A stretch of DNA of 64,000 nt from Oopsacas minuta (lineage: Eukaryota > Animalia > Porifera), in NCBI GenBank assembly GCA_024704765.1, contig JAKMXF010000210.1, positions 528,121-592,120 on the forward strand, read 5' to 3'. Under the pieces are notes generated by a model, which was not told the origin of the DNA, did no database searches, and was given only the letters and a program-made list of their open reading frames with translations. A program made the position numbers and the translations under genes. Of the stretch, positions 30,601-49,296 are shown piece by piece (positions within the stretch are counted from its first letter, which is position 1; each line of letters starts with the position of its first letter).

Positions 30601-33600
30601 TGGATATGATAAGAAATCAACTTCTTATATATTGTATTATATGATTTTCTTAGGCCAGCATTGGTAAGCCTAAGACAGGCTTGAAGCCACTAGCGGGTAA
30701 TGTTCATAACGGACTGAGAATTCTATACACAGAAGATGAGCCTCTAGATCTTGCTGGGGTGTGTGACGTTACCAAACCACAGACTGGAATTACGTTTTTG
30801 TGTCCGAAGAGCAGTGAAACTTCTAAACTTGATTATCCACGGTTGATTGGGGTGGATATCAGTGGATGTATATTCGAATTTGAGTGGTACACAAAGCTAG
30901 CCTGTACTGAAACAGGAACACCTGTGTCTACTCCATGTGCTTTCCAGGACCCTGTTAGTGGATTTGTATTCTCTTTATTGTCTCTAGAAGGTACAACACC
31001 AGTGAAATATGATGGTGAGTTATTTTATACAATAAAACATCATAGAAATGCCGTGAGCACTTGAATACTTGAAGCAAAGTTTCGCGAAGTTTCGTACCTG
31101 AAAGGATATGCGCAAGGGTGCTTATTCAGTCAGAAAATTAGCCACGTATGCTCGTGAATTACTTAATTAACTTTTGCTGTAAAATTGCGCAAAAAAAATG
31201 CCCACGACAGGGATCGAACCTATGACATTCGGCTTATTAGACCGACGCTCTAACCAACTGAGCTACGTAGACAAATATTATATTTTAATTCTAATTCAAA
31301 ACTTTGTTAGTTGTCTTTCCAGTTCATCTAGACAAAAAGACTGCCCCCGACAGGGCTCGAACCTGTGACCTTGGGCTTATTAGACCCACGCTCTAACCGA
31401 CTGAGCTACGAGGGCAGATAATATTCCTTTCCAATTCACCAATTTTTATATCATGTTACAATTACACCCTTTCTATAGAGAATACAAACGCTGACTCTCC
31501 TTTCTTCTACCTATCTATATGCTCTACTATTGACTCAGATCTCCTTCAATCTTCTATAAACCCAAAGTCTGGGGCTGTTCTTCTTTACCCAAATACTGTA
31601 TCTGATGCTAAGAACTCGAGTTTAGGAGAAGCTAACTCAAACCTGTTGTACAGTGATAGTGAGCTAATACAGCTCAGATACATTGAAGGAAGTGCATGTT
31701 CAAGTGGCAAGGTTATGTATTAATGTTCACTTCCTTCATGAATACAATTGTTATTATTCTTATCGTTTTTCAGAAATCAACTCTAATCACCTTTGTGTGT
31801 TCACATCTTATAGCCTCGAGTGTGTCTTACATTAGCTCTCTGCCATCAGATGACACCTGTCTATTTGAGTTTGAATACAAGACAATCCTTGCTTGTCCTC
31901 CCATCACAACAGAATGTGTCATAACTTCTAATGATGGACAATTGTATGATCTTACCAGACTGAAGCAACTCTCTGGGACCGGGTTCCCTGTCTATATTTC
32001 TGGCCAGTATAGCGATATACCTCAATTATCTTCTCTACGAATTTCGGTGAGCAATGTTTAGCATACTACCGTTAGATATTCTACAATAGTTACGAGTGTA
32101 TGCATTAGATATGTCAACCATTGGAAGCTGGTAGTACCGAAACATGTACTAATGGATCTGCATCTTGTCTGAGCTATGACAATCATATATTCGATCTGGG
32201 ACATGTAACAGGAGACCTACAGCTGAGTCAGCAGGGAGAACTCCAGCTGATATACTCAGGAGGTACAGGTTGTAGTAAGAGCGCGCTTACAGTGATAACT
32301 TTTCGGTGTGATCGTAGTGTTGGAGTTGGACAGCCTCTTCTTAGTCTACATAGGAACACGAGTGGGTCTTGTTACTATGATATTGTTTGGGACTCTGAGT
32401 ATGCTTGTGCAGTATTACCCAGTGAGGAATCTAACTGTGCTGTGACAGATACAGATTCAGGTATTATACAAATATTATAGAATGTTGTGAGGTGATGATC
32501 TAAATACTTTTTCGGATTCTATATACATACTCTGAACTTATAAATATTTTCCATTAACCTGTCAAGGTAATTGAGTTATTCATTACTACTATACTGGCTT
32601 GAAACCTGTTATCTTTAGATATGTTATTACAAGATTTTACAACATCCTCTTATCTTACATATTCTTCTAGGATTTGTATATAACTTTACAAGTTTGAGTA
32701 AATTACCAGATATACACATACAACCTGACTCTACAGTTACCTCAGATGATTACAGCTTCACTATCTCTATTTGTCGTCCTATAACATCATCATGTGGAGA
32801 TGGTAGTGCTCATGCAGGAGCTTGTCAATATTCTGATAACACCCAGCATGTTACAGGTAAGATAACCTTATTACCATGACAGATATAGAATTATATTTGT
32901 GTTATTATGTAGGATTATATAGCTCTACACTTATACTGAGTGATGGAGAAGTTCAGCTGGTATATTCTGGGGGTCAAGCATGTCATAGTAACAATGTTAA
33001 CAGAACAACAATAATACGTTTCTATTGTGACAAGACAGCAACTTCTCCTCGAGCTGTAGTACTACCTGAATTGACACATTGTCTCTATGAAATTATGCTA
33101 TATACTAATCTAGCTTGTCCTCCTAGCCAACCTACGTTCAAATGCAATGCTAACAATCCTGATAACGGAAACACTTACGATCTGTCTAGCTTACAACACA
33201 AAGCTTATTTTGAAGTATACTCTACAGATAGTATTGTGTACTACTTTAGTGTTTGTAACCTTCTACCTTCTCAATATGGTAATAAGGGTGTACACTGTGT
33301 TACTGGTTCTAGCTTCTGTGTGTTACATAAGAACAGCAATAATGTGAGTATTTACTAAGTAGACTGTATCGTTAATAGAATGATGGTTACTAGTTTGTAT
33401 TGTAGATATGGAAAGCTACTAATCTCGGTACAATGACACACTCCCCTTACCTACTACGGGATAATCTTCTCCTACTCTCCTACTCAACTGAGGATGCGAA
33501 ATATAACACTACCGTGGGATTAGAGTGTTCTGAAGAGTCACAATCGGTTACAGATCCAATTCTTGTTTATCATAGTGCTGACTTTTCTACGAATATATTC

Positions 33601-36251
33601 TCATGGCTAACGCTAGCAGCTTGTCAGAGCGAGGCATCTGACAGCTGTCAAGTTGTGCAATACAGCACTGGATTTACTATAGACTTAGACAGCTTCAAAG
33701 CAGTTAGTATTCAGTCTCAATCTAATGACGTAGGAGATAAGTTAGCTATTTCTCTTTGTGGTGCTCTAACAGATCCTAGCTTAGGAGATTGCTATAGTAA
33801 TAACAATACTGCAGTGTGTTACTCAAAGGGTAGCGATCACTATCCTATTGCTACCTCTAATACTTCTAAATGGTTCTACGGAGATGAAATAGTAGTTTCT
33901 TATTATAATGGATTTAACTGTTTGGACCAATCTTCTCCATTCAAGAGCTCTGTAGAGCTTACGTTACAATGTGGTGATAGTGAAAGCCAATCATTCGTAG
34001 AGCCTTCTAATGAGTGTGTGTATCAGGTTCTATGGCAGAGTCCTCTGTTATGTCAGTATCAAGTTGAATGCAGTGTTACACATAACGGATATGATTACGA
34101 TCTGAATTGGCTGAAAGCATATGATAGCAATTGGAGAGTTAGTTTGTCTGATAAAAAATTTCTTATTAACGTGTGTCACAATCTATTGCCAGAAGAAACA
34201 CAAACTTGTGACAGTACAGCTGCTATTTGCATGATTAGTGGTAATCATGCAGTTAATTTAGGTCAGGTTACTAATGGGCCTCAGTATGTTAGTGAAGGAG
34301 CCCTTCAGATTGAGTATAAGAATGGAGATGAGTGTGGAGATGGGACATACAGTTCTACTATTCAGTTTAATTGCCAGAAAGGAGCTGATTTAGAAGATTA
34401 TATCACTCAATCAGTGAATGTAAGTTTATGCTAACACTATTTATTAAATACGTTTATTATATCTTCTTCTTGTTATAGGGGTGTCACTATATGTTCATCT
34501 GGGATACACACGTGGCTTGTGAAGATGCTGGAGGTACTATTATTGGTAAATGTGAGATAGAAGACACAGTAACAGGAGATGTATATGATCTTAAACCTAT
34601 TTTTGATGTAGGGATAATTAATGTCACTATTGAACCATTATTACAGATTATTGCTTGTCAAACTATAAAAAGGTGTGGAGGAGCGGTATGTTATGACAAT
34701 TCTATTAGCTATGGTAAATATACTGATTCTAGTCTCAAGTTAGTGAATCATGTCCCTACACTTGAGTACAAGGATGGTAGTCCTTGTGGTAACAGCAAGT
34801 ACAAGTCTAACATAGAATTTATTTGTAACAAGAGTGCAATAGATCACAAGTATGTAGAGCATTTGCCAATAGACGGTTGTATACACTATTTTTTATGGCA
34901 TACTCCATTAGCTTGTGCTTCTACTGTCACTGAGTGTAAACTGACAGTTGACAACCGTATAGTTGATATTACAGATTTGAATAGGAAATTTGGTGCTTGG
35001 GAGGTTGACGTGAAAGGTGATAAGTTATACTTTAATCCTTGCGCTGGTATGAGTTCTTTCTTGATTAACACAAATCTGAAGAGTGAATCTTGTTCCTCTG
35101 ACTCTCTTGCTTGTCTTCTATCGAAAGAAACTTTGCAAGAAGTAGGAGCTCTGGACACAGCTGTTCTTAAACTCAGTATAGATGGAAAATATCCTATAGA
35201 AACAGCTCGTAGCCAAACTAAATGTATTCTTGATAAATCTAAAACAAAGTCAATTCAAATACTCTTCTATCCAGGCTCTGCTATGATAGAAACTCCTGTA
35301 TTCCAGGGTCTCCATCGTACAACTAGCTCATGTGTGATTAGTATTGTATTCAGTACTTCTCTAGTCGGAGAATCTTCTCCTATCAATGAACATAATGAAC
35401 TTATAACCACAGAGACACCAGGAACATGTCATAATGTACTTGTGAAGCTGAATAAAAATAAGGATTATCACATAAGTAGTGATTTGAATGGAGAAACTCT
35501 TGATTTCTACGTAAATTTCTGTTCACATACAAGTGTGGAAGGTTGCAAAGAAGGTACAGTGTGTCTCATAAGGACTCAAGGTAGTAAAAAATCCGATCCA
35601 ATTGCTCTCAGTTCTTATAAAAAACAGAGAATAAATGCTGTTAATAATTCTTATATAGAATTAATCATTAGTTCTGTTAACAAGTCATGTCCATTTACAA
35701 ATAAACACATCCTTACAGTATTCTATATATCTTGTTCTTCCCACTATACCGCAGTGAGTATTGAATTCGAATTCACTTCTCCTACAGGCTGTCTCTATGT
35801 ATTCAATGTGTTAGCGCCTTCATCAGTTTGTCTTTCATACGAACCTACTGATGCGCCTCCTGGAGAATCTATAAATAGCGCTGGTAAGACTGCTGTCGTG
35901 TTTATTGTAGTCCTGATTGTTTGTTTGTTAGGGATATTCCTTGCTATCCTAATCACACTCTGCTTCTATAAGCGCTCTACCAAGGGCGATCGCATGTTCT
36001 ACAAGCTTAGAGCTTATCTCTCTCGTGTACCAGACGTACAGTTTAGATTCCAGAAGGTTGACGGATCTGAAATGGGTCATTTGATTACTAATATGAGTGG
36101 GAGTGAGTCTGAGGATGAAACTGTATCTGAGATTGGACCTGTGGGTACAAGAATTGAGCCTGCTGGGTTGGACAAGTTTTCTATTTCTGATCCTCCTGCT
36201 GGAAAAGAGGGAGGAGATGGTTCTGAAGATGAAGATTTTATTAAACTCTGA
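27684..36251 (+). CDS. IGF2R: cation-independent mannose-6-phosphate receptor-like giant receptor with about 15 MRH repeats, 15 exons, about 2376 aa
   Basis: Phase-checked exons: 27684-28049, 28110-28562, 28624-28929, 29049-29526, 29585-29853, 29916-30248, 30290-30592, 30654-31014, 31479-31711, 31774-32046, 32109-32460, 32671-32856, 32913-33343, 33406-34419 and 34479-36251. They total 7131 nt, in frame. It has a signal peptide and repeated MRH-type modules with recurring motifs (C..Y.F.W.T..AC, VxFxCD/K, GD.C). One TM helix (AVVFIVVLIVCLLGIFLAILITLCFY) is followed by a cytoplasmic tail ending GSEDEDFIKL, an acidic-cluster dileucine motif like CI-MPR sorting signals. All introns are GT-AG and 41-465 bp long. 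Confidence 0.8.
29890..29907. repeat. (ATT)6 microsatellite inside a 62 bp intron of the receptor gene
   Basis: Read directly from the sequence. Confidence 0.7.
31199..31272 (-). tRNA. tRNA-Ile (anticodon AAU)
   Basis: Reverse complement GTCTACGTAGCTCAGTTGGTTAGAGCGTCGGTCTAATAAGCCGAATGTCATAGGTTCGATCCCTGTCGTGGGCA. It folds as a cloverleaf: 7 bp acceptor stem with two G-U pairs; D-arm GCTC/GAGC; anticodon loop CTAATAA (anticodon AAT); T-arm with GGTTCGATCC; discriminator A. It lies inside intron 8 of the receptor gene. Confidence 0.85.
31342..31415 (-). tRNA. tRNA-Ile (anticodon AAU), second copy
   Basis: Reverse complement GCCCTCGTAGCTCAGTCGGTTAGAGCGTGGGTCTAATAAGCCCAAGGTCACAGGTTCGAGCCCTGTCGGGGGCA. 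Same cloverleaf and the same anticodon loop CTAATAA. It is 70 bp from the first copy, same orientation, same intron. Confidence 0.85.
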
Positions 36252-36424
36252 TAATTATTTTCATAACATTAGCTAATAATTCTTGCAGGGGTTGAGTAAT
36301 ATTTGTCTATATGTCTAGTGGATCAATATACACGTCATGTGAATTTATATATCTTCATACGGGATTACGTATATATTAATTATAGCTTATTCTCGTAAAT
36401 TTCATATTTTGACCTTATATCTTC

Positions 36425-37660
36425 ATGCTAGCCGAAATATACCTTTATACTATACATCGAGAGGTTGTCATGTCCTTAACTTTGAAGCAAATTTGTCAAA
36501 TCTATTATATTGCTTTCCTCCTATCTTATTCTATGAGAGTTTCCTGTGAATTCATCCCCCCATCTAATCAGATATGTATGGACGAATCTATTACTTTTGA
36601 TTGTTTACTTACTGGAACTTTTCCAACTGTACAATTATTTGTCCTCAATAATACAACAATCAATTTATTTCAATTAAATAATATTGATAGTTTCTTCGGG
36701 ATAGATCTAACCCGTCTAAGTGCTACAGTTGATAATACTCTAGATCAGAATACAGGTCTGTACACATTACTCCGTGCTAACATTACACTTGTAAATATTA
36801 CAAAGGGAGATAATGGTACACTGATAGGATGTACTGCAACTACTTCTGGTAATGTTTTACTGGAAGATTCAGATACTCTTTATCTAGCTTCTCCTCCTTC
36901 TGAACTTGACATTATATTATCCCCTATACCCTCTAATTGTAGTGTTAAAGTATCATGGACTTATCCTATACAGTCTACTCTACCTATAACTGAAGAGATT
37001 ACAGATTCTGTTACTAACATTATTACTTATGATCGGGTATATTTCTCGAACTTCCTAACAGCTGGACAAGATTATACTTACACTTTAACTACCAGCAACT
37101 GTTTAGGAGACTCTATAACAGCTGATACTCAGCTGTTCTCTCTTCCTTCTCAACCTGATGCTTACACCTGTTCTGCTAAATATGGGTCTGAAAATAGAAT
37201 ACTAGTTTTACAGCTGTTTGGCTATACTTCTGAGTATGCTATTGAGACTAGTTTTACATTATCTGAAGACAGTGATAATACCATTAATTTGTCTGATACT
37301 TTTACTGAACCACGTTACTATTCTAAACAGATGTTTAATCTACCATCAACAAGAAACTATACAGTTATGTTTACATCTATATTGAGAGATTGTATTAGAT
37401 CCCTGCAAACAACTTGTGAAACCAAACTTAATATTACTGCTAGAGTTACACCAAATCCCTCCCCTCCTCCCTTAACGAATACATTCGTAACCACCAGTCC
37501 TTCCACATGTAATTATATTCTCAATACCAATGACTTTAGTATATTTAATGCAATGTTCTGGGTTAGTATCATTGGGTCGATTTTGCTGTGTTTCCTCAAT
37601 ATTACCGTTTGTATTAGTTTTATTTTAATCTGTCTGAACCAATTTAGACTGGTGTTTTGA
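36425..37660 (+). CDS. Ig-like/FN3-like single-pass glycoprotein, paralogue A (short tail)
   Basis: ORF of 411 aa; the likely real start is the in-frame Met at 36470 (MSLTLKQICQIYYIAFLLSYSMRVSCEF, signal-peptide-like). The Ig-like module is ITFDC...DNGTLIGC (a D.G.Y.C-like motif). The FN3-like module is PSNCSVKVSWTYP...YTYTLTTSNCLGDS. There are more than 15 N-x-S/T sites, a C-terminal TM helix and a very short tail. Outside two variable patches it is over 90% identical in nucleotides to copies B and C. Confidence 0.55.
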   Translation: MLAEIYLYTIHREVVMSLTLKQICQIYYIAFLLSYSMRVSCEFIPPSNQICMDESITFDCLLTGTFPTVQLFVLNNTTINLFQLNNIDSFFGIDLTRLSATVDNTLDQNTGLYTLLRANITLVNITKGDNGTLIGCTATTSGNVLLEDSDTLYLASPPSELDIILSPIPSNCSVKVSWTYPIQSTLPITEEITDSVTNIITYDRVYFSNFLTAGQDYTYTLTTSNCLGDSITADTQLFSLPSQPDAYTCSAKYGSENRILVLQLFGYTSEYAIETSFTLSEDSDNTINLSDTFTEPRYYSKQMFNLPSTRNYTVMFTSILRDCIRSLQTTCETKLNITARVTPNPSPPPLTNTFVTTSPSTCNYILNTNDFSIFNAMFWVSIIGSILLCFLNITVCISFILICLNQFRLVF

Positions 37661-37767
37661 TACGTTTGTATATTTTGAGCATTTTAAAGCTATCTTTGTA
37701 TTATAATTTCAGCTAATCAATTGAATTGAATATATTTAATGAGTGACTTATATATTTAGCTTTTCCA

Positions 37768-39117
37768 ATGAATAACCTACTCTTACTTCTACTCTTATTA
37801 TCCCTCTTGCTATGTTATATGAGAGTTTCCTGTGAATTCATCCCTCCATCTAATCAGATATGTATGGACGAATCTATTACTTTTGATTGTTTACTTCCTG
37901 GAACTTTTCCAACTATACAATTATTTGTCATCAATAATACAACAGTCAATTTATTTCAAATAAATAATATTGATAGTTTCTTCGGGATAGATCTAACCCG
38001 TCTAAGTGCTACAGTTGATAATGCTCTAGATCAGAATACAGGTCTGTACACAGTACTCCGTGCTAACATTACACTTGTAAATATTACAAAGGGAGATAAT
38101 GGTACACTGATAGGATGTACTGCAACTACTTCTGGTAATGTTTTACTGGAAGATTCAGATACTCTTTATCTAGCTTCTCCTCCTTCTGAACCTGACATTA
38201 TATTATCCCCTATACCCTCTAATTGTAGTGTTAAAGTATCATGGACTTATCCTATACAGTCTACTCTACCTATAACTGAAGAGATTACAGATTCTGTTAC
38301 TAACATTATTACTTATGATCGGGTATATTTCTCGAACTTCCTAACAGCTGGACAAGATTATACTTACACTTTAACTTCCAGCAACTGTTTAGGAGACTCT
38401 ATAACAGCTGATACTCAGCTGTTCTCTCTTCCTTCTCAACCTGATGCTTACACCTGTTCTGCTGAATATGGGTCTGAAAATAGAATGCTAGTTTTACAGC
38501 TGTTGGGCTATACTTCTGAGTATGCTATTGAGACTAGTTTTACTTTATCTGAAGACAGTGATAATACCACTAATTTGTCTGATACTTTTACTGAACCACG
38601 TTACTATTCTAAACAGATGTTTGATCTACCATCAACAAGAAACTATACAGTTGTGTTTACATCTGTATTGAGAGATTGTATTGGATCCCTGCAAACAACT
38701 TGTGAAGCCAAACTTATTATTACTGGTATAGTTACACCAACTTCCCCCCCTATTCCAACACCTACTCCCTCCATGACTATTCCAACTCAGAGTCCACAGG
38801 ATTACCTAGTATACATCATAATAGCAGTAGTTCTCTTCCTACTGTTATTATTCCTATCTTTTGTTATAATCTTGCTTACTTGTCTACTAAACAGAGGGAA
38901 AATATTCAGAAATAGAACTTCTCCTCAGAATGCTAAGGGTTTTTCTAAGCGGGTTGCAGCTCCCGCGAAAATCTCTGATTCAAATGAAAACGGGGATGAG
39001 CTAAATTACCTAAAACCAGAATTTGGTTCCAATCCTAAGAAACCTAATGCTCCTATCCCTAAGACTCTGTATGCAGATATTAAGCATATGCCTTCTGACT
39101 ACGCTACCCTACAGTAG
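37768..39117 (+). CDS. Ig-like/FN3-like single-pass glycoprotein, paralogue B, with an ITAM-like cytoplasmic tail
   Basis: ORF of 449 aa. The signal peptide is MNNLLLLLLLLSLLLCYMRVSC and the ectodomain matches A. A Pro/Thr-rich stalk is followed by the TM helix YLVYIIIAVVLFLLLLFLSFVIILLTCLL. The tail ends ...LNYLKPEF...KTLYADIKHMPSDYATLQ. The segment YADI-x6-YATL matches the canonical ITAM YxxI/L-x(6-8)-YxxL, and SDYATL also fits an ITIM-like pattern. Confidence 0.75.
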   Translation: MNNLLLLLLLLSLLLCYMRVSCEFIPPSNQICMDESITFDCLLPGTFPTIQLFVINNTTVNLFQINNIDSFFGIDLTRLSATVDNALDQNTGLYTVLRANITLVNITKGDNGTLIGCTATTSGNVLLEDSDTLYLASPPSEPDIILSPIPSNCSVKVSWTYPIQSTLPITEEITDSVTNIITYDRVYFSNFLTAGQDYTYTLTSSNCLGDSITADTQLFSLPSQPDAYTCSAEYGSENRMLVLQLLGYTSEYAIETSFTLSEDSDNTTNLSDTFTEPRYYSKQMFDLPSTRNYTVVFTSVLRDCIGSLQTTCEAKLIITGIVTPTSPPIPTPTPSMTIPTQSPQDYLVYIIIAVVLFLLLLFLSFVIILLTCLLNRGKIFRNRTSPQNAKGFSKRVAAPAKISDSNENGDELNYLKPEFGSNPKKPNAPIPKTLYADIKHMPSDYATLQ

Positions 39118-39420
39118 TTATGCCTTTGTACTTGTTAGTGGTTTTATTCTTATCTAAGGTATTAATTCAGCTTAAATCTAATCCTGCTGGTATGACCTAT
39201 TAGTAATTATCCTCCCCCTTCTCTACTAAATGGATTTATATTGAATTGTTTATTTCTTTACTTTCTTTGTATAATATCTAGTGAACTGTTTACCTTATAT
39301 AACTTGTATGTATAGGATATGTAGTATTTGTTTGTTGTTTTGTTTACTTTATAATAATCATACTATCCAGAATTATTTGCACAACCAAACAATTCATATC
39401 TTCGTTCATTTTCTTACTAG

Positions 39421-39540
39421 TTAGCTATGGCTAGCACTACATGTCCACATGTAACTAACCAAGGTCTAGAGATGGATCTTGGTAACTTATCGGCTACTGA
39501 CATAGATTTCCATCTAACTAATGAGGGAGGCTGTGTTTCC
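39421..39540 (+). pseudogene. duplicated 5' fragment of RRS1 (ATG plus 39 codons), fused at the duplication junction to copy-A tail sequence
   Basis: Segment 39421-39540 is near-identical to 41101-41220 (MASTTCPHVTNQGLEMDLGNLSATDIDFHLTNEGG). It then reads into CVSSILPFVLVLF stop, a 48-codon chimeric ORF. Confidence 0.7.
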
Positions 39541-39711
39541 TCAATATTACCGTTTGTATTAGTTTTATTTTAATCTGTCTGAACCAATTTAGACTCGTGT
39601 TTTGATACGTTTGTATATTTTGAGCATTTTAAAGCTATCTTTGTATTATAATTTTAGCTAATCAATTGAATTGAATATATTTATGACTGATTTATTTATT
39701 TAGCTATTCAA

Positions 39712-40680
39712 ATGAATAACTTACTCTTACTTCTACTCTTATTATCCCTCTTGCTATGTTATATGAGAGTTTCCTGTGAATTCATCCCTCCATCTAATCA
39801 GATATGTATGGACGAATCTATTACTTTTGATTGTTTACTTCCTGGAACTTTTCTGCTTGTACAAGTATTTATCGTCAATTCTACACTAGTCAATTTATTT
39901 CAAATAAATAATATTGATAGTTTCTTCGGGATAGATCTAACCCGTCTAAGTGCTACAGTTGATAATACTCTAGATCAGAATACAGGTCTGTACACAGTAC
40001 TCCGTGCTAACATTACACTTATTGATATTACCAAGGAAGATAATGGTACACTGATAGGATGTCAAGCGACTAATTCTGATAATGATTTAATTGAAGTTTC
40101 AGATACTCTTTATCTAGCTTCTCCTCCTGAACTTGACATTATATTATCCCCTATACCCTCTAATTGTAGTGTTAAAGTATCATGGACTTATCCTATACAG
40201 TCCACTCTACCTATAACTGAAGAGATTACAGATTCTGTTACTAACATTATTACTTATGATCGGGTATATTTCTCGAACTTCCTAACAGCTGGACAAGATT
40301 ATACTTACACTTTAACTTCCAGCAACTGTTTAGGAGACTCTATAACAGCTGATACTCAGCTGTTCTCTCTTCCTTCTCAACCTGATGCTTACACCTGTTC
40401 TGCTGAATATGGGTCTGAAAATAGAATGCTAGTTTTACAGCTGTTGGGCTATACTTCTGAGTATGCTATTGAGACTAGTTTTACTTTATCTGAAGACAGT
40501 GATAATACCACTAATTTGTCTGATACTTTTACTGAACCACGTTACTATTCTAAACAGATGTTTGATCTACCATCAACAAGAAACTATACAGTTGTGTTTA
40601 CATCTATATTGAGAAATTGTATTGGATCCCTGCAAACAACTTGTGAAACCAAACTTAATATTACTGCTTTAGTTCTATGA
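39712..40680 (+). CDS. Ig-like/FN3-like glycoprotein, paralogue C: truncated before the TM helix, either a secreted form or a young pseudogene
   Basis: ORF of 322 aa with the same signal peptide as B. Local indels near 40655-40680 create a stop (...CETKLNITALVL stop). Downstream remnants of the TM and tail are readable in other frames (LPYYLTYIIIAVVLYAF stop; ...MPSDYATLQ stop at 40780-40806). Relative to B, about 260 bp covering the TM helix and most of the tail are deleted. Confidence 0.55.
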   Translation: MNNLLLLLLLLSLLLCYMRVSCEFIPPSNQICMDESITFDCLLPGTFLLVQVFIVNSTLVNLFQINNIDSFFGIDLTRLSATVDNTLDQNTGLYTVLRANITLIDITKEDNGTLIGCQATNSDNDLIEVSDTLYLASPPELDIILSPIPSNCSVKVSWTYPIQSTLPITEEITDSVTNIITYDRVYFSNFLTAGQDYTYTLTSSNCLGDSITADTQLFSLPSQPDAYTCSAEYGSENRMLVLQLLGYTSEYAIETSFTLSEDSDNTTNLSDTFTEPRYYSKQMFDLPSTRNYTVVFTSILRNCIGSLQTTCETKLNITALVL

Positions 40681-41113
40681 ACTCCCTCCCTTACCTCCAT
40701 GACTACAAACACAGGTTTACCACCTCAGAGTCTACCGTATTACCTAACATACATCATAATAGCAGTAGTACTCTATGCCTTCTGACTACGCTACCCTACA
40801 GTAGTTATGCCTTTGTACTTGTTAGTGGTTTTATTCTTATCTAAGGTATTAATTCAGCTTAAATCTAATCCTGCTGGTATAACCTATTAGTAATTATCCT
40901 CCCCCTTCTCTACTAAATGGATTTATATTGAATTGTTTATTTCTTTACTTTCTTTGTATAATATCTAGTGAACTGTTTACCTTATATAACTTGTATGTAT
41001 AGGATATGTAGTATTTGTTTGTTGTTTTGTTTACTTTATAATAATCATACTATCCAGGATTATTTGCACAACCAAACAATTCATATCTTCGTTCATTTTC
41101 TTACTAGTTAGCT

Positions 41114-42248
41114 ATGGCTAGCACTACATGTCCACATGTAACTAACCAAGGTCTAGAGATGGATCTTGGTAACTTATCGGCTACTGACATAGATTTCCAT
41201 CTAACTAATGAGGGAGGTGTTCCTAATGAGCAGGAGTTATTGAACAGATCACAACAATGTGTTCAAACAATGTTCAGTCAGCTGTCTAAACTTCCTCACG
41301 AGAGAGACGGACATCTGTCAGTTGTCAAACTACCTGAACCTAAAACCCAGCTTCCAAGATATCAACCTCTTCCTCAACCTAAGCCTCTGACTAGATGGGA
41401 GAGATATTCCAAAGAGAAGGGAGTGAGTAATAAGAAGAGGAGTAGGATGGTGTGGGATGAAGGAGGACAGGAATGGAAACCAAGATGGGGATACAAGAAG
41501 GCTAGTAAGAGACCAGAGGATCAGTGGTTGGTTGAGGTAAGTACTAAGTTATTACTTATATATTAGATTAATTCTATCAATTATTATGCTATTAGATTCC
41601 AGACCAGAAGGATCCATATGAAGATTACTTTGAGAAGGCTAAAGAAGAGAAGAGAGAGAGGGTAGCTAAAAATGAGTACCAGAGAGTGAGGAACCTTATG
41701 AGAGACCATGAGGGTAAAATTAAAGCTCCACACCTCCTCACAAATCAGGGACAGAAAGGAGGAAGGAAGGAACTTAATATGATGACTAGCCTTGCAAAGG
41801 TTTCTACTCCATCTCTTGGAAAGTAAGTATTAGCTATATACACGTAGTTGTGATAATATTTATCTTCTGATATATTTATAGGTTTAGTGAGAAAGTTAAA
41901 GGAGAACCTAAATCCATCCGTGGGCAGAAGAGAAGGTTTGATCCTGTGTTAGGAGATTTAAAATCAGAACGAGACAAACAGTTGAAACTCTTAGAAACAA
42001 TATCAAGAGATAAACCCATAGTGAATGTTAGTAAAGCAGTCAACAGGTATATTGATAAGAAACAGAAGTCTAATAGACAGACAGAGGATAATTATGATAA
42101 TGAAGATACACAACCAAGACATAAAAGTAAGTTTGGTAAAAAGATGAAAGGGAAAACTCCCTTGAAAACGAAACTACCTAAAGCAGGTAAGAAAGTTGAG
42201 AAAAAACTGAAAAGATTGCAACAGACGAAAAGAAGAATGAAACTTTAG
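41114..42248 (+). CDS. RRS1: ribosome biogenesis regulatory protein Rrs1 homologue, 3 exons, about 338 aa
   Basis: Exons 41114-41536 (donor GAG|GTAAGT), 41596-41822 and 41882-42248. The translation contains ...KPLTRWERYSKEKGVSNKKRSRMVWDEGGQEWKPRWGYKKASKRPEDQWLVE|IPDQKDPYEDYFEKAKEEKRERVAKNEYQRVRNLMRDHEG...KVSTPSLGK|FSEKVKGEPKSIRGQKRRFDPVLGDLKSERDKQLKLL..., collinear with Rrs1. Confidence 0.85.
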
Positions 42249-42481
42249 TAAAATCCTTCCATCCAATTAGTTTAATCAAATCACTTTTTAATTATTGTGA
42301 TTTGTTTTGTAATTTAATTAATAATATAAAATTCCAATGATTAGGTTTATCATAGCTTTGTGCGTAATAAGATCTATCTTCTAATGAAATTCTAACTATA
42401 ATTATGTTTACGAACTTATAACGTAATTTGTAATTACTTATAAAAGCAATATTACAGTAGTGAGTATAGTTTAAGAAGGAT

Positions 42482-44209
42482 ATGTGGCTGTTTGACAGGT
42501 TTGTGCTATTCCGCGCGTTCTCATTGCGAGGGTTTCTCAATGATCTCCCGAGATACATTTTCGTGACTTTATGGATGCTTACGAATATCGGCCTATTTAT
42601 TGGGTTCTTTGTGCAATTTGAAACGTTCCCTCGATATTTCTACTTCCGTATGATTAGCCGTCAGGGTCTATCGTTTGCAAGAGCTCCTGCTGCTGTTATT
42701 AACTTCAACTCTATGCTTATTCTATTACCGGTGTGTCGGAATTTAATCTCGATTATCCGTGGAACATGTTTTCGTTGCTCTCGTAGTCTACGGAAAGCTC
42801 TTGACAAGAACATCAGTTACCACAAGCTATTTGCTTGGACTATCATTTTCTGCTCAGTCATACACACTGCTGCACATTATTACAACTACGAGTTTATCAT
42901 AACTGATGCTGCCAGTCCACAACGCTTCGAACAAGTTCCTTCTAATCCCCTAAGGAACAATCCTCTTATCTATCTTCGTCTGTTAGAGAATAGGTCTCTC
43001 GTCCTACCTCTTGATGCAGTCCTCTTAAACTACATGACGTATGCAGGTATAACAGGTCACATAATGTGGCTTATACTATTTCTAATGGCAACTTCTTCTG
43101 TTGAAGTTATACGTAAGAGTTTCTTCGAAATATTCTGGTATACTCATCACCTGTTTATTTTCTATTTTATTGCGCTTGGTATCCATCAGTTTCAAATGAT
43201 ACTTCCATTTCAATCCAATGTGGATGTGAGTGATCCTTTCAACTGCTCTAGATTACCTGTGGATACTACAGGTGAAGGGTGTGAAATATTGCCTACCTTT
43301 ACCGCTGCTCGCCCTAGTTCCTATAAATGGTTTGTTATCCCACTAGCTATCTATCTTGTAGAGCGATTGATCCGATTCATAAAGAGCCTTATTCCTGTAC
43401 AGATTGTTCATGTAGAAGAACATCCTTCTAGAACACTTGAGATTCGTATGAAACGTAGGTTCTTCCGTCAGGATGTAGGTCAGTATGTGTTCGTTAATAT
43501 TCCATCCATCAGCTTTCTAGAGTGGCACCCTTTCACACTCACTTCCTGTCCAGAGGACAATCCAGAATTCAGTGTCCACATCAGAATTGTAGGAGATTGG
43601 ACAGAAGCCCTGCTTAAGAAAGTTAGACAGAAGGGATCTAATGTTCGTAGCACTATAATTACTATTGATGGCCCTTTTGGTACAGCAAGTGAAGATGTGT
43701 TTGATTATGAGATAGCTATGCTGGTAGGAGCTGGTATCGGTGTAACTCCTTTCGCTTCTATTCTGAAATCGATTTATCATAAACGTAAGAATATGAACCT
43801 TAAGAAATTATCTCAGATATATTTCTTCTGGGTGTGCCCACAGCCTCAGTCATTTGAATGGTTTGCTACTCTCCTCAAAACGATTGAGAAATCTCTCCAA
43901 GATGAAGGTTGTCCAGATCTCATTAAGTATGAGATTTATCTAACTCGTGGATGGACTGCAGCGGAAGCACGAAATATCTACCTCCATGAGGACGACATTG
44001 AAGATCCGATCACCCGTTTGGGAGCTAAGACTAACTACGGACGACCTAAATGGGATGAGATATTCGCTACCATTGCTGAAAATCACTCTAAAAAGAAGGT
44101 GGGTGTGTTCTTCTGTGGACCGCCTATACTTTCAAAAGAACTACACTTCCAAGCTAACAAACACTCTACCAATAACTGTAGCTTTTCTTATAACAAAGAG
44201 AATTTCTAG
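42482..44209 (+). CDS. NOX: NADPH oxidase (NOX1-4 type catalytic subunit, no EF hands)
   Basis: Intronless ORF of 575 aa. It has a six-TM ferric-reductase domain with paired His residues; the FAD-binding HPFTLTS; the NADPH-binding GIGVTPFASILKS; and a C-terminal FFCGPP. There is no N-terminal EF-hand or peroxidase domain. Confidence 0.85.
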   Translation: MWLFDRFVLFRAFSLRGFLNDLPRYIFVTLWMLTNIGLFIGFFVQFETFPRYFYFRMISRQGLSFARAPAAVINFNSMLILLPVCRNLISIIRGTCFRCSRSLRKALDKNISYHKLFAWTIIFCSVIHTAAHYYNYEFIITDAASPQRFEQVPSNPLRNNPLIYLRLLENRSLVLPLDAVLLNYMTYAGITGHIMWLILFLMATSSVEVIRKSFFEIFWYTHHLFIFYFIALGIHQFQMILPFQSNVDVSDPFNCSRLPVDTTGEGCEILPTFTAARPSSYKWFVIPLAIYLVERLIRFIKSLIPVQIVHVEEHPSRTLEIRMKRRFFRQDVGQYVFVNIPSISFLEWHPFTLTSCPEDNPEFSVHIRIVGDWTEALLKKVRQKGSNVRSTIITIDGPFGTASEDVFDYEIAMLVGAGIGVTPFASILKSIYHKRKNMNLKKLSQIYFFWVCPQPQSFEWFATLLKTIEKSLQDEGCPDLIKYEIYLTRGWTAAEARNIYLHEDDIEDPITRLGAKTNYGRPKWDEIFATIAENHSKKKVGVFFCGPPILSKELHFQANKHSTNNCSFSYNKENF

Positions 44210-44709
44210 TAGCTCTACTCCTTGAGGTCTCCATAACGTGTGAATACTGTTTACTGTGTGTGTATGGATTATTTTATTTTGTATATACCTGTTTTGATGC
44301 TAGCCTTTGCTTTACAGCATAACATTCTTGCCATATAGATATTGTGTTATTTTATTTACTATTGCTGTTATTATCTGTTGTCTTAGCAGAGTTTATTTCT
44401 AGTACATTTGCCAGCTGGCCTACATCATGCAGTCATACTAACATATTTCGATTACAAACTATTAGTTTGTTTTGACCTTACAAATATTGTATATTCCCCT
44501 GTTAGGCAATAATTAGTTTGCATCATTTATCAAGGCTACATATATCATCAGCAGCAGCAACCAATGTGACTTTAACTTACAATATTAATGATGTGACGTT
44601 TAATACGTACATTCGTTGCAGGGTTATACTATTCCTTAATATTCTTAATATCAAATTACTAATTCTACAAATGAATGAAATATTACAATTTGTTTATGAT
44701 TAGAGAAGC

Positions 44710-47700
44710 ATGAGGAATCTCCAGTTATTCTCCTGTGGGAGTTATCATTTATTGAGGGGGATTTTCGCTATTGATGCTGATACAGGTGATATTTGGTTGA
44801 TAAGCGATAGTTTGAAACTGTTTTGTTACAAAGAATTGGGAAAAACTTGCAAGGAACATGTTAATCTATCTCTTGAAGCAAATCTTGAATCTTCTAACGC
44901 TGTTATAAGTTTAGATTATGTATTAGACTTAGAATCTGTGTATTTCGCTCTTAGAAATGGAGACATATACAAGTTCTCTGTTGAATCAGACGAGCTAGAT
45001 AATATTGGTTCTGTAGCTTGTGGTTTAGAGTGTGCTGTGTGGAGTCCTGATCAAGAGATTATAGTGCTAGTCTCTACAGAAGGGAAAGTTGTAATGCTTA
45101 GTAAAAACTGTGATCCTATTTCAGAATCTAACCTTTTAACTGGCGAATTCGGGGAAGCTAGTCCTATAGTGCTAGGATGGGGGAAGAGAGAGACTCAGTT
45201 CAAAGGGAAAGCTGGTAAATATGTAGATTTAAAGGATAAAGATAGTCAAGAATCTGTCAATATTCTGACAAGTGATGACAGGAAGGTTAGAATCTGTTGG
45301 AGAGGTGATGGGCAGTTTTTTGCTATTTCCTTTGTAAATATTTCAAAGGGTTTAAGAGAAATTAAGATATTCACCCGTGAGTGTGTGCTACACGCCACAA
45401 GTGAATCTGTTGCTGGTATCGGTCAGTCTCTATCTTGGAAACCTTCTGCTAACCTAATAACAACCAACCGTACTTCACACAGACAGGAGATTGTATTCTT
45501 TGAGAAGAATGGTTTGAGGTATGGAGAGTTCTCTCTACCCTGTCATGTTACAGAATATTTTGTGAGAGAGGTTGAATGGAATTCTAATTCTACGATACTT
45601 CTAGTACTGTTAGAGCCTCTGATTTCAGATACTAAAACTCTAGTTCAGCTATGGACATGTAACAACGCCCATTGGTACCTCAAACAAGAGATTTGCTTCC
45701 CATCTGTTAGCTCTCCTACACTAATCAGATGGAATACTATACAGCCTAATACTCTACATATTCTAACACAATCTGGCTCTTATCTTACTTACGAATTGAG
45801 AACTGTTGTAACTCAGTCAAATGAGTATGATAACTGGATAGCAGTGATTGACGGCTGTAGAGTATTGCTATCTCCATTTCGTGATCTTACAGTACCTCCC
45901 CCAATGTCCAGCTGTTCTGTGGAGTTGAGTAGACCCGTTATAGAGGTTATTTTCGGGAGAGAAGAATACAAAGATAGAATTCTTTGTCTGTTATCTAACT
46001 ATACAATAATAGAATTAAAACACAGCAAATCAGATGGAAATATAAATAATTCTGAATTCTTAGACAAGACAGGATTTTATAGCTTATCTAAACCATTCCA
46101 TTTCAGAGATAATACTACAGATATTTCATATCACACTATACGACATATCCAGTGGATAACTGTATATTTATTATTAGCTCTATCTTATAGCAGTGATGCC
46201 AAAGAACATAAGATAGAGCTTTATAATATTCTGAGTGAGGAGAGAGAAATTGTTCTTGTATCAGTTGTTACTACAATAAAACCTATTCTAACACTCATAT
46301 CTTGTTCCGATAGTTTAGCTGTAGAATTCATAGATGGAGAGGTGAACCGTGTTAGTTGTACTAACGAAACACTCTCGTTACAACCTTGGGTTAACTTGCT
46401 CTATCCATCACATCGCATTAGTATAGCTAGGTTTTCTGGAGAGGAACATATTTTGGGATTCACTGTTAACGGGAGATTGTTTCTAGACACAATTGAGTTA
46501 TGTTCTAATGCGACGTCTTATTACCTTCATAGTCACTTCCTTCTAATCACTACCAGTAGTCACTATTTACACTCAATCAATCTATCTACACCAATATATG
46601 AGCTACCAGCTATTCTACCTACTCAGTCTCATACAACTAATGATGCTGTACGTAGAGTAGAGAGAGGAGCAGAGATTATAACCGCAGTTAGTAACGATAG
46701 CAAAGTTGTTCTCCAGATGCCCCGTGGTAACCTCGAAGCCATTCATCCACGTGCTCTGATTCTAACCATTATAGCTAAGCTTCTAGACAATAGAGAGTAT
46801 TCTGTAGCATTTGCTATCCTTCGTAGGCAAAGAATAAATATGAATTTATTTCATGATTATAACCCTGAAATATTTATAAGTTCAATTCATGATTTCATAA
46901 CACAAGTCCACCAGCCTCAGTTCTTGAATATTTTCATAACAGAGCTATCAGATCAAGATATTTGTACTACGATGTATCCTAACATGAAGAGACATGTCAC
47001 TAATATTAATAGTGAGAATAAAGTTAACTCTGTGTGTGATATCATGGTAGAAACTTGTGAGAAAGCTAATAATACTAACTTATATCTGCTGCCTATATTA
47101 ACCGCTCTGATTAAGAGATCTCCGTCTCAGCTAGGAGAGGTTTTAACCCGAATTAAGAACATACCAGTAACAAGCAAAACTTCTCAAGAAGATGCTCTCA
47201 AATATATTTCTCTCCTTATTGATATGAAGCAGTTATATAAGGTAGCATTAGGTACTTATGACTTTGATATTATGTTACTTGTAGCCCAGAACTCTAATAT
47301 GGATCCTAAAGAGTATCTTCCTTTCATGAATAATCTCAAATCTCTAGAAGAAAATTACAGAGCTTATTTTATAGATTGTCATCTCTGTAAATATGAGAGT
47401 GCATTAGTACATATCCTGAAGTGTAGAGGCCGTGAGGAGGAATGTATCGCTTTTATCAATAAGCACGAGTTGTATAGCAAAGCATTAGAACAGATCCCTA
47501 CAGGAGATGGTGAGCTTATTCAAAGGGTCTCTTTGGCTTATGGGAATTGGCTTTGTTCAAAGGAGAAGTATCCTGAAGCTGGACTTGTATTTATACAAAT
47601 TGGAGAGCTCGCATTGGCCCTCAAAGCTTATAGAAAGAGTGATAACTATCATCGAGTACTATCACTTGCACTTCAACTTAATTTGCCAAAAGATTCATTC

Positions 47701-48585
47701 CATAAAATAGTCTATGAGTTAGTTAGTAAGCTAAAATCTATTAATGAGATTATGACTACATCTCAAATACTCTGTGAGTATACACAGGATTATGAAGATG
47801 CTATCTTCCTACTGATAGAGAACAATATATTTAATGAGGCATACAGACTTATATACAAATACTTACGGATAGATTTGCTGGAAACTCACTTCAAACCGAA
47901 GTTAACAGAAACTGCACAGAACATGCTTTCTATGCTAATCGAGTCTAGAACAATTGTAGAGAAGTATGTTAGTAGACTTGAAATAGTTTTGACAAACAAA
48001 CTTGAGGAAGGACAGACTTATTTTGAGGAGGGAGGTGACATAAGGGATCACGAGTTCTTTTCAGAGCAGAGCAGCGTAACAGGACAGTCTCAAACAAACT
48101 CTATAAGTTCTAAAGGTTCTAAGAGTAGCTCTAAATCTGCTAGAGGCAGTAGGAGTAGAAAGAAGCAAGAAAGGAAAAAGTATAGATTGAAGGAAGGGAG
48201 TGCTCATGAAGATATAGCTCTATTGGAAGAGATAAGGGGGGTAGTAGTCAGAGTTGATCAGATACAAGATGATTTGAATATTATTTTAGATCTGTTAATA
48301 ATAACGAATCAACGACTATTAGCACGAGACCTACAAACAAATGCTCGTGCTACCATCACCTATCTTGCTTCTATTATTCCCAAGACATGGCATAAACATA
48401 GACTAATAACAATATCTCTCTCATTAGTTCATGAGGATGGAATCATATCCAGTCCTAACCTGTGTACTGGTATTATAAATGTGTTAAAAGGAGGAGATTT
48501 ATTTCCAGCACAGACAGATGTAGAAATATCAGAACCATTAATTCGCAGTATAAAATGGGAGATTAGCTATCTATTGAGTTCATAG
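44710..48585 (+). CDS. ELP1: Elongator complex protein 1 (IKI3/IKBKAP family)
   Basis: Intronless ORF of 1291 aa. The N-terminus MRNLQLF... and the WD-propeller block with ICWRGDGQFFAISF match the ELP1 motif ISWRGDGQ(F/Y)FAVS. The C-terminal half is long and alpha-helical, and there is a basic Ser/Lys-rich patch (SKGSKSSSKSARGSRSRKKQERKKYR). Confidence 0.85.
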   Translation: MRNLQLFSCGSYHLLRGIFAIDADTGDIWLISDSLKLFCYKELGKTCKEHVNLSLEANLESSNAVISLDYVLDLESVYFALRNGDIYKFSVESDELDNIGSVACGLECAVWSPDQEIIVLVSTEGKVVMLSKNCDPISESNLLTGEFGEASPIVLGWGKRETQFKGKAGKYVDLKDKDSQESVNILTSDDRKVRICWRGDGQFFAISFVNISKGLREIKIFTRECVLHATSESVAGIGQSLSWKPSANLITTNRTSHRQEIVFFEKNGLRYGEFSLPCHVTEYFVREVEWNSNSTILLVLLEPLISDTKTLVQLWTCNNAHWYLKQEICFPSVSSPTLIRWNTIQPNTLHILTQSGSYLTYELRTVVTQSNEYDNWIAVIDGCRVLLSPFRDLTVPPPMSSCSVELSRPVIEVIFGREEYKDRILCLLSNYTIIELKHSKSDGNINNSEFLDKTGFYSLSKPFHFRDNTTDISYHTIRHIQWITVYLLLALSYSSDAKEHKIELYNILSEEREIVLVSVVTTIKPILTLISCSDSLAVEFIDGEVNRVSCTNETLSLQPWVNLLYPSHRISIARFSGEEHILGFTVNGRLFLDTIELCSNATSYYLHSHFLLITTSSHYLHSINLSTPIYELPAILPTQSHTTNDAVRRVERGAEIITAVSNDSKVVLQMPRGNLEAIHPRALILTIIAKLLDNREYSVAFAILRRQRINMNLFHDYNPEIFISSIHDFITQVHQPQFLNIFITELSDQDICTTMYPNMKRHVTNINSENKVNSVCDIMVETCEKANNTNLYLLPILTALIKRSPSQLGEVLTRIKNIPVTSKTSQEDALKYISLLIDMKQLYKVALGTYDFDIMLLVAQNSNMDPKEYLPFMNNLKSLEENYRAYFIDCHLCKYESALVHILKCRGREEECIAFINKHELYSKALEQIPTGDGELIQRVSLAYGNWLCSKEKYPEAGLVFIQIGELALALKAYRKSDNYHRVLSLALQLNLPKDSFHKIVYELVSKLKSINEIMTTSQILCEYTQDYEDAIFLLIENNIFNEAYRLIYKYLRIDLLETHFKPKLTETAQNMLSMLIESRTIVEKYVSRLEIVLTNKLEEGQTYFEEGGDIRDHEFFSEQSSVTGQSQTNSISSKGSKSSSKSARGSRSRKKQERKKYRLKEGSAHEDIALLEEIRGVVVRVDQIQDDLNIILDLLIITNQRLLARDLQTNARATITYLASIIPKTWHKHRLITISLSLVHEDGIISSPNLCTGIINVLKGGDLFPAQTDVEISEPLIRSIKWEISYLLSS

Positions 48586-48843
48586 TTTAGAATCTTTTTC
48601 TTGAATGAATTAATAGAATTGTGTAGGTAGTGGGCACCTTATTTTATTCCCAATTCTTACGTTTTTTAACTTTATTCAATGGCTCAAAGCCACTAACCAA
48701 GACATCTTTACATACTCGTACCTGTGTTAAGACCCCATGACCAAATAGCATTTATTTCTATTCCTTCGAACTGTGACATCAATGCCACATATGTTAGGCT
48801 TTATATTTTTATATAAATGTGATTTTTGCTCTCTTTTACATAA

Positions 48844-49296
48844 ATGGTTGCGAATAGTACATGTACCCAATTTGAAATGTCTTTTCAGACTCTTCAAGCA
48901 ATTCTATGGATTAATATTATTACATTAATCACTGTAATGTCTTTTTGGTTACTGGCACTATTATATGGCTTATGTTATTTGCAACGAAAATCCAACCTAA
49001 ATACTGTTACTTCGCCTCCTAGGTCAGTTTTAATACCTCCCCGACATTCAATATCATCTGTTGGAGGACTTAATTTAAGTGTGCGTGATGTAGTACGAAG
49101 AATTAGTACACATTCTAGACTTGATCAAGATGATTGTGTAACTATTGGTAACAATGGTGTTAAAGTGTCAGATAATTTGCATCTTATCAAATCTACCCAG
49201 TATCAAGAGCAGCCACTAGAAAGTGACTCTGACCTTGAATCTAATGCGATGATTAATCTCGAAGATGGAACCACATTAACTCAATCATCTATTTAA
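48844..49296 (+). CDS. small single-pass membrane protein, unknown function
   Basis: ORF of 150 aa with one hydrophobic helix (ILWINIITLITVMSFWLLALLYGLCYL). It fills the gap between ELP1 and the cyclin gene on the same strand. No family assignment. Confidence 0.3.
   Translation: MVANSTCTQFEMSFQTLQAILWINIITLITVMSFWLLALLYGLCYLQRKSNLNTVTSPPRSVLIPPRHSISSVGGLNLSVRDVVRRISTHSRLDQDDCVTIGNNGVKVSDNLHLIKSTQYQEQPLESDSDLESNAMINLEDGTTLTQSSI

Follow-up and report, generated by a model that had tools for sequence, protein, structure and literature searches.

The question raised by the receptor locus of the glass sponge Oopsacas minuta is how a segment that begins inside one gene and ends inside another came to lie there twice, head to tail, and what this duplication made and left behind. 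The window, by which we mean the whole stretch of DNA that was analysed (64,000 nucleotides with about 35% G+C), contains two related receptor genes, copy A and copy B, then the start of an RRS1 gene, then a third receptor copy, C, and finally the intact RRS1 gene (Table 1). Our answer, which is very probably correct, is that a genuine tandem duplication, specific to the Oopsacas lineage, was made by a non-homologous join in a locus whose ancestral order was copy A, copy B and RRS1.

Table 1. Coordinates of the genes, duplicated units and breakpoints at the receptor locus (positions in the window)
Feature	Position	Strand	Remarks
CI-MPR-like repeats	to 36251	+	
Receptor copy A	36470-37660	+	396 aa from Met 36470; short-tail type, C-terminal transmembrane segment, no cytoplasmic tail
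Receptor copy B	37768-39117	+	449 aa; long-tail type
Receptor copy C	39712-40680	+	B-type; 322-codon ORF, TGA at 40678-40680 just before the stalk
Deletion scar in copy C	40773/40774	+	251 nt lost relative to copy B 38836-39086; junctional identity of 1 nt (T)
Duplication unit 1	37586-39530 (1945 nt)	+	A tail, A-B spacer, copy B, B-RRS1 spacer, first 104 nt of RRS1
Duplication unit 2	39531-41217 (1687 nt)	+	Copy of A tail, spacer, copy C, spacer, first 104 nt of true RRS1
Left parental breakpoint	37585/37586	+	Transmembrane-coding tail of copy A, after codon 372 of 396; 24 codons and stop remain (register alignment, frame arithmetic)
Right parental breakpoint	41217/41218	+	RRS1 codon 35, coding nucleotide 104 (register alignment)
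Novel junction	39530/39531	+	RRS1-derived to the left, A-tail-derived to the right
Duplicated RRS1 upstream sequence	39087-39426	+	End of B coding sequence and complete 309-nt B-RRS1 spacer; presumed RRS1 promoter
Chimeric 48-codon ORF	39427-39573	+	35 RRS1 residues and 13 out-of-frame A-tail residues; ends with TAA
Intact RRS1	41114-42248	+	Exons 41114-41536, 41596-41822 and 41882-42248; 338 aa (spliced translation)
NOX (NADPH-oxidase-like, LOD99_2500)	42482-44209	+	
ELP1	44710-48585	+	

The two units and what they contain

When the region 36200-41300 was compared by self-BLAST with the whole 64-kb window, the only repeats found were the blocks of two adjacent direct units and the ectodomain homology among copies A, B and C; the window holds no further copy of the unit. 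The first block (37585-38836 against 39530-40774) is 93.9% identical and the second (39087-39530 against 40774-41217) is 99.55% identical, i.e., 442 of 444 nucleotides, with both mismatches located upstream of the RRS1 ATG. Unit 2 thus follows directly on unit 1, as a first-pass annotation of this DNA had proposed, and the same annotation was right to place the left breakpoint within the last codons of copy A. The copy A tail at this point is real coding sequence because it encodes a transmembrane tail that is conserved in other species. Two of the positions given earlier have to be moved, however: register alignment puts the novel junction 10 nt to the left of the 39540/39541 first reported, and frame arithmetic puts the RRS1 breakpoint at coding nucleotide 104 and not 106.

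At the junction, the sequence can be read directly in register with both parents. It matches the true RRS1 through G39530 and the copy A tail from G39530 on, and this G is the sole base that can be assigned to both of them. Because both unit boundaries fall inside coding sequences of the same orientation, the junction carries the 5' part of RRS1 followed by DNA of the A tail.

We picture the event as follows. The ancestral order was copy A, copy B and RRS1, all on the + strand, and a 1945-nt segment, reaching from 24 codons before the stop of copy A to RRS1 nucleotide 104, was copied head to tail. At the single new junction, two unrelated sequences meet with one base in common. Here broken ends may have been joined, or a template switch may have taken place for which essentially no homology was needed. 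With both boundaries in coding sequences of the same orientation, the join fused the RRS1 upstream region, the ATG and 35 codons to copy A tail DNA.

The downstream, true RRS1 is untouched by the duplication. It has two introns of 59 nt each, both GT-AG, and its product matches the RRS1 Pfam profile (PF04939) over positions 2-165 of 165 (E = 4.7e-52). The second RRS1 start lies at 39427, and its 35 residues are 100% identical to those of the true gene starting at 41114, so the earlier statement that the RRS1 upstream region, ATG and 35 codons were duplicated upstream of copy C holds. The spacer in front of this stub differs from the one in front of the true gene by two substitutions only, both upstream of the ATG, and the duplicated upstream region plausibly keeps promoter activity.

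The chimeric ORF of 48 codons also exists as described, but it does not follow the reading frame of the copy A tail. The junction base, G39530, falls in codon position 2 when read in the stub and in codon position 3 when read in copy A; the 13 residues added to the RRS1 fragment are CVSSILPFVLVLF, where copy A itself reads LCFLNITVCISF... (LCFLNITVC...). The ORF stops after these 13 further codons because the A-tail DNA is read out of frame, and the product is not an in-frame chimera that keeps the peptides of both parents. The 48-aa product has no Pfam match at E <= 1, and the stub is not covered by the retrieved NCBI gene models (LOD99_2497, LOD99_2498 and LOD99_2500). It is a by-product with no recognisable RRS1 function, a fragment and not a member of the RRS1 family.

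The three receptor copies differ in what follows the ectodomain. Copies A and B are 97.1% identical over 937 nt of ectodomain sequence (36529-37465 against 37815-38751) and are unrelated elsewhere. Copy B has a predicted signal peptide, three beta-sandwich domains, a transmembrane helix and a tail with TLYADI and SDYATL. It is 100% identical to part of LOD99_2497, an O. minuta hypothetical protein at NCBI, and this gene model wrongly fuses copy A with copy B. Copy C corresponds to LOD99_2498 (100% over part of the sequence), which is annotated from the second Met. These two models and LOD99_2500 are all on one O. minuta scaffold of 722,285 bp.

The AlphaFold (AF2) model of copy B has a mean pLDDT of 56.6, with confident prediction limited to the N-terminal domain and the transmembrane helix. 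A Foldseek search with the model returned generic Ig/FN3 strings with low TM-scores, which speak to the fold class only. The N-terminal domain is modelled with confidence as Ig-like, and two further beta-sandwich domains are predicted.

Two lesions can be read directly in copy C. Beyond the TGA, the frame continues unbroken through the B-type stalk and into the beginning of the transmembrane segment, up to the 251-nt deletion. This deletion shifted the frame and took away the larger part of the transmembrane segment together with the entire cytoplasmic tail. The presence of two independent disabling lesions, a nonsense codon and a frameshifting deletion, suggests that copy C is a pseudogene or, at best, encodes a secreted ectodomain.

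The locus in other glass sponges

A search for homologues added 14 members to the family, each of them in an ENA assembly, and four of the contigs (L001-L004) were compared with the window. The four are syntenic with it, having CI-MPR, an A-type receptor, a B-type receptor, RRS1, NOX, ELP1, a small ORF and a cyclin. Two of them, L001 and L003, have the order A-B-RRS1, L002 has A-A2-B-RRS1 and L004 has A-fragment-B-RRS1. The RRS1 N-terminus is present once per locus in all four and twice in the window only, and the B-RRS1'-C arrangement (with RRS1' for the stub) is absent from the loci of these four other species. Because the four contigs keep A and B, with or without an extra element between them, ahead of a single RRS1 start, their gene order makes A-B-RRS1 the ancestral state and the B-stub-C arrangement specific to the Oopsacas lineage. 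One of the B-type protein clusters includes transcripts of Vazella pourtalesii, from which we take the relatives to be glass sponges and the receptor family to be transcribed.

The number of receptor copies has changed in three of the five species, and not always in the same manner. For example, the middle gene of L002 resembles the upstream region of B at 241 of 252 nt and the 3' end and downstream region of A at 447 of 473 nt, and it is thus a classic unequal-crossover hybrid. A profile search of 1.84 billion representatives recovered six full-length clusters of the family only; the rest were weak matches to the central FN3-like domain.

Inside any one of the five species, the ectodomain DNA of copy A is 90-97% identical to that of copy B, whereas orthologues are 46-57% identical in protein. 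The neighbouring genes are 65-90% identical between species. As the A and B ectodomains are nearly identical within a species even though the orthologues are far apart, these comparisons clearly point to concerted evolution at the receptor locus.

Divergence between the units

The duplication had been described as young enough for both units to be alignable base for base. Most of the alignment agrees with this description. Copies B and C and their surroundings differ at 2 of 149 sites in the 5' flank, 1 of 47 in the signal-peptide region, none of 94 in 37815-37908, 4 of 521 in 38186-38706 and 2 of 444 in the 3' flank and stub, giving a background of 9/1255 (0.7%). However, three patches differ by 10-27% between the units: one just 5' of the ATG (5/32), one in the N-terminal domain at 37909-38185 (28/274 and a 3-nt indel) and one in the stalk and transmembrane region at 38707-38836 (34/126). 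That is, 67 of the 76 substitutions are packed into the 432 nt of the patches (Fisher p = 6e-32). Youth is therefore what the background indicates and the patches contradict, and base-for-base alignment holds outside the three patches and the 251-nt deletion. Recent copying and steady, clock-like decay are together not enough to describe the two units, because most of the unit differs by 0.7% and the patches by 10-27%.

The relationships among the three copies also change along the sequence. In the N-terminal patch (39854-40100 in copy C), A and B differ by 2.2% and C is about 10% from both. Outside this patch, B and C group together at 0.8%, and A is 2.1% away. When the states specific to copy C in the patch are compared with the outgroup species, they are ancestral at 13 sites and derived at 15. 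Since they match the outgroups about half of the time, the copy C patch goes back to an old lineage of sequence, as opposed to a burst of fresh mutation, and the 13 to 15 split of polarisable states leads us to reject rapid new mutation in a decaying copy C as its sole cause. A recent conversion of B by A after the duplication, which could account for the likeness of A and B in the patch, is disfavoured; the two differ there at 6 sites when about 2 would be expected (Poisson p = 0.016).

All six of these A-B differences are non-synonymous and none is synonymous. The patch differences are 23 non-synonymous to 5 synonymous (a dN/dS ratio of 1.5), and the A and B ectodomains differ by 18 to 2. 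These numbers are suggestive of positive selection, with counts that are too small to claim it.

What, then, produced the mosaic? Three histories fit it. In one, a young duplication was followed by conversion of copy C from a donor that is not seen here; in another, the duplication itself was an exchange between two chromosomes that carried divergent B alleles. The third history, possible but doubtful, is that the duplication is old, that its age is recorded in the 10-27% patches and that gene conversion later re-homogenised most of the unit. Concerted evolution is demonstrably active at the locus in five species, the grouping of A with B in the N-terminal patch and of B with C elsewhere is what such conversion could leave, and the copy C patch has ancestral-looking states. 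However, at least four separate conversion tracts would be needed, of which two would have to cross non-coding DNA and stop precisely at the unit boundaries, and the four other species do not have the B-RRS1'-C arrangement, so the event can be no older than the split from them.

How the units were joined

Unequal crossing-over between the receptor ectodomains, homologous though they are, is not how the join was made. Homology between A and B is confined to 36529-37465 and 37815-38751, and the breakpoints, in the A tail and in RRS1 codon 35, have no homology to each other and are not in the extended homology that NAHR would use. Because the joined sequences are unrelated and have one base in common, we infer a non-homologous join.

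A source in mobile DNA or structured RNA was also considered and rejected. Rfam and Tandem Repeats Finder gave no match over the junction region, a search for inverted repeats of 30 nt or longer came back empty and the units are not flanked by repeats or mobile-element signatures.

The first-pass annotation had seen TGTT(T)CCT microhomology at the junction and had taken it as typical of replication-based or microhomology-mediated duplication. The resemblance is real in that the two parental sites do hold GTGTTTCCTCAAT and GTG-TTCCT-AAT, respectively. However, the exact identity at the crossover is 1 nt (the G), and random pairs of sites in the window have at least 1 nt in 47% of cases and at least 2 nt in 18%. 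As for TGTT(T)CCT, the similarity needs two gaps, and on the A side its beginning is displaced 3 nt rightward from the crossover because the junction keeps the CTG of copy A ahead of it. Among random site pairs, 12.6% show a local similarity within 15 nt on either side that is as good or better (p = 0.126). Exact identity of at least 2 nt at the crossover, beyond what chance would give, is thus not present, and the microhomology and the mechanism drawn from it do not survive the comparison with chance.

It follows that MMEJ or a template switch of the FoSTeS/MMBIR type, guided by the TGTT(T)CCT similarity, is unlikely. Replication-based mechanisms can work with very short or imperfect homology, the single G common to both parents is exactly at the junction, and replication-based formation of segmental duplications has been described in yeast (PMC2518615). 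On the other hand, the switch took place 3 nt to the left of the similarity that would have guided it, both the similarity and the one-base identity are of a size often met in random pairs, and the junction has no templated insertion, multiple switch or other complexity, with each base traced to one parent. The sequence supports a non-homologous join, and it neither requires nor demonstrates a microhomology mechanism; a template switch relying on 1 nt, or on the imperfect similarity nearby, would be indistinguishable from such a join.

One might also ask whether the two units are alleles of a single B-RRS1 region that were laid end to end during assembly, each chromosome having one unit only. 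The DNA for the O. minuta genome was pooled from specimens that were not clonal, and it was assembled with hybrid SPAdes (k = 21-99), then with SSPACE at a minimum overlap of 15, and then with Pilon (PMC10280926). Non-clonal DNA and hybrid assembly raise the prior for stacked alleles, and the units differ as alleles might, with a 0.7% background, an indel and hypervariable patches. However, the two sides of the junction have 1 nt in common, and a de Bruijn edge at k = 21-99 requires reads that contain the join, while SSPACE was run with a 15-nt minimum overlap. SSPACE leaves unmerged joins as Ns. The 64-kb window has no N bases, and no unit boundary is at a gap, a scaffold join or a common sequence. 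In addition, a chimeric long read that joins points 1.9 kb apart, in direct orientation and within the same locus, is improbable, and false haplotype duplications normally end at contig joins and not inside two coding sequences. JGI metagenome contigs contained neither the junction 35-mer nor the parental RRS1 36-mer taken as a control, so this organism is not represented among them and the missing junction carries no weight. We consider an assembly artefact to be very unlikely.

Finally, a history in two steps, in which a deletion from RRS1 nucleotide 105 to the A tail cut down a larger duplication that had taken in the whole of RRS1 and the whole of a second copy A, is extremely improbable, for although it gives the identical final sequence, and although secondary deletions inside duplicates are common (PMC4069613) and unit 2 already has its 251-nt deletion, it needs two events where one is enough and has left no independent trace in the window.

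Known duplications and the receptor pair

The Oopsacas event is an ordinary duplication scar of an already known kind, and tandem duplications of this sort are well documented in flies, worms and humans. Surveys in Drosophila have found that tandem duplications with boundaries in parallel coding sequences make chimeric genes and gene fragments and that secondary 'modifying deletions' are common in them (Rogers et al. 2014, PMC4069613). The sponge locus resembles these cases in its direct tandem copies with a single novel junction, in the way this junction sets the beginning of RRS1, the gene downstream (its 5' end with promoter and start codon), in front of 3' sequence from copy A, the gene upstream, in the 'modifying' deletion in one copy and in the membership of the gene in a fast-evolving receptor class. 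It differs in that its fusion is out of frame, adding 13 novel codons and recruiting no domain of copy A, and in that it is one case in a single glass-sponge assembly, whereas the Drosophila surveys rest on population data. What the junction offers is a clean, resolved example in which an extra gene copy, a stub with its presumed promoter and a short novel ORF arose at once.

Comparison with the common mechanisms leads to a similar mixture. Like NAHR in tandem receptor clusters, the Oopsacas event changed the copy number among near-identical receptor genes, and the extra copies in two other glass sponges are products of NAHR. It is not a NAHR product, because its junction is outside the common ectodomain homology and joins unrelated sequences. 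Like the products of MMEJ and FoSTeS/MMBIR, it doubled a few kb in a plain head-to-tail layout, and its breakpoints fall in unique sequence; unlike them, it has neither microhomology of at least 2 nt nor templated insertions.

The duplicated receptor pair is more interesting than the junction itself. In vertebrates, paired immune receptors include, e.g., KIR, SIRP, Siglec-5/14 and CEACAM1/3 (reviewed in PMC3533184). As in these families, A and B are adjacent and have near-identical, concertedly evolving Ig/FN3-type ectodomains joined to unrelated transmembrane and cytoplasmic parts, and a near-identical ectodomain with unrelated remaining parts is also present in the four other species. One partner, B, has a tail with the tyrosine motif T-x-Y-x-x-I/L (and, in O. 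minuta, also S-x-Y-x-x-L); the other, A, has a transmembrane anchor only, and the pair shows rapid evolution and repeated changes in copy number.

EELHY[IM][TQ]P is a conserved element of B-type tails, most of which also keep T[LVQ]Y[AST]D[IL]. SDYATL is present in the tail of O. minuta copy B only, and the tyrosine motifs are to be read as pattern matches to the ITIM/ITSM type. In other glass sponges, too, the A-type tail keeps its ..FN.MFW.. pattern. Unlike the vertebrate receptors, the pair has no sequence homology to any vertebrate family, and the A-type transmembrane segments (..MFW[VI]..LL..LN..) contain no charged residue (K, R, D or E) of the sort that recruits an ITAM adaptor. The resemblance is one of architecture only, and we do not claim membership in these families.

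Judging from these comparisons, the A/B pair, which is restricted to glass sponges and evolves fast and in concert, is a reasonable candidate for an immune-type or allorecognition function in a lineage that branched early among animals. One could go further and regard the locus as a snapshot of glass-sponge 'paired receptor' diversification, in which an ancient, hexactinellid-restricted A/B pair underwent an illegitimate exchange between homologous chromosomes with very different B alleles, both of which were then fixed in cis. This proposal is quite improbable as a whole. If such an exchange did occur, the 99.3% identity outside the N-terminal-domain and stalk patches would be explained in one step, and the locus would be highly polymorphic and possibly related to self/non-self discrimination.

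As a separate observation, the A/B pair evolves much faster than the genes next to it.

Organisation of the receptor locus

An A-type and a B-type receptor gene form a conserved pair in five glass sponges, namely in the window and in the syntenic loci of four other assemblies (L001-L004). The A-type protein is short, with a transmembrane anchor at its end, and the B-type protein continues beyond its transmembrane segment into a tail with the conserved motifs EELHY[IM][TQ]P and T-x-Y-x-D-[IL]. The order CI-MPR, receptor pair, RRS1, NOX, ELP1, small ORF and cyclin is kept in all five loci (positions 33000-49000 of the window). The genes are intron-poor and very compact; for example, ELP1 (1291 aa) and NOX (575 aa) are each single ORFs. 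The three ORFs of the CI-MPR-like gene are presumably exons of a single multi-repeat receptor, and the same split is seen in the syntenic loci.

Positions of the receptor genes and the CI-MPR-like gene
Feature	Locus	Positions	Remarks
CI-MPR-like gene	window	32876-36251	upstream of receptor pair; consecutive long ORFs of 160, 333 and 586 aa
Receptor pair	window	36470-39117	
Receptor pair	L001	8436-11392	
Receptor pair	L002	6415-11341	
Receptor pair	L003	8341-11317	
Receptor pair	L004	7243-11428	
Extra receptor copy	L002	8391-9530	middle gene of locus; B head + A tail hybrid
Extra receptor copy	L004	8628-9275	215-aa fragment, B-type signal peptide

The deposited O. minuta gene model LOD99_2497 (P0001; 592 aa, window 36470-39117) fuses the whole of copy B to the 3' portion of copy A, the A-type gene, by a spurious splice. 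Copies A and B are distinct genes: both encode a signal peptide and both have a stop of their own. The duplicated RRS1 start (ATG and 35 codons at 39427) lies outside every gene model retrieved in this analysis.

Evolution of the ectodomains and of the B tail

Within each species, the ectodomains of the two partners share 90-97% DNA identity, a similarity which indicates that they evolve in concert. Between species, the ectodomains share just 46-57% protein identity, as against 65-90% for the adjoining genes. The differences between the O. minuta ectodomains (37815-38706 versus 36529-37420) are nearly all non-synonymous (18 to two synonymous, pN/pS about 2.8), which hints at selection for divergence of the partners in spite of homogenisation, the counts being too few for a formal claim.

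Copy B ends in TLYADIKHMPSDYATL (39060-39114), which is found in O. minuta B only. Its two Y-x-x-[IL] motifs lie six residues apart, and this spacing is also compatible with the ITAM pattern. The second tyrosine is absent from the B-type tails of the other species.

Extra receptor copies

Receptor copy number is altered in three of the five lineages. Extra copies arose independently at the same locus in the L002 and L004 species, and the hybrid in L002 has the structure expected of a product of unequal crossing-over. In O. minuta, copy C, the extra B-type copy, has two separate disabling lesions (40678-40800), a TGA ahead of the stalk and a frameshifting deletion of 251 nt; its ectodomain ORF of 322 codons remains intact.
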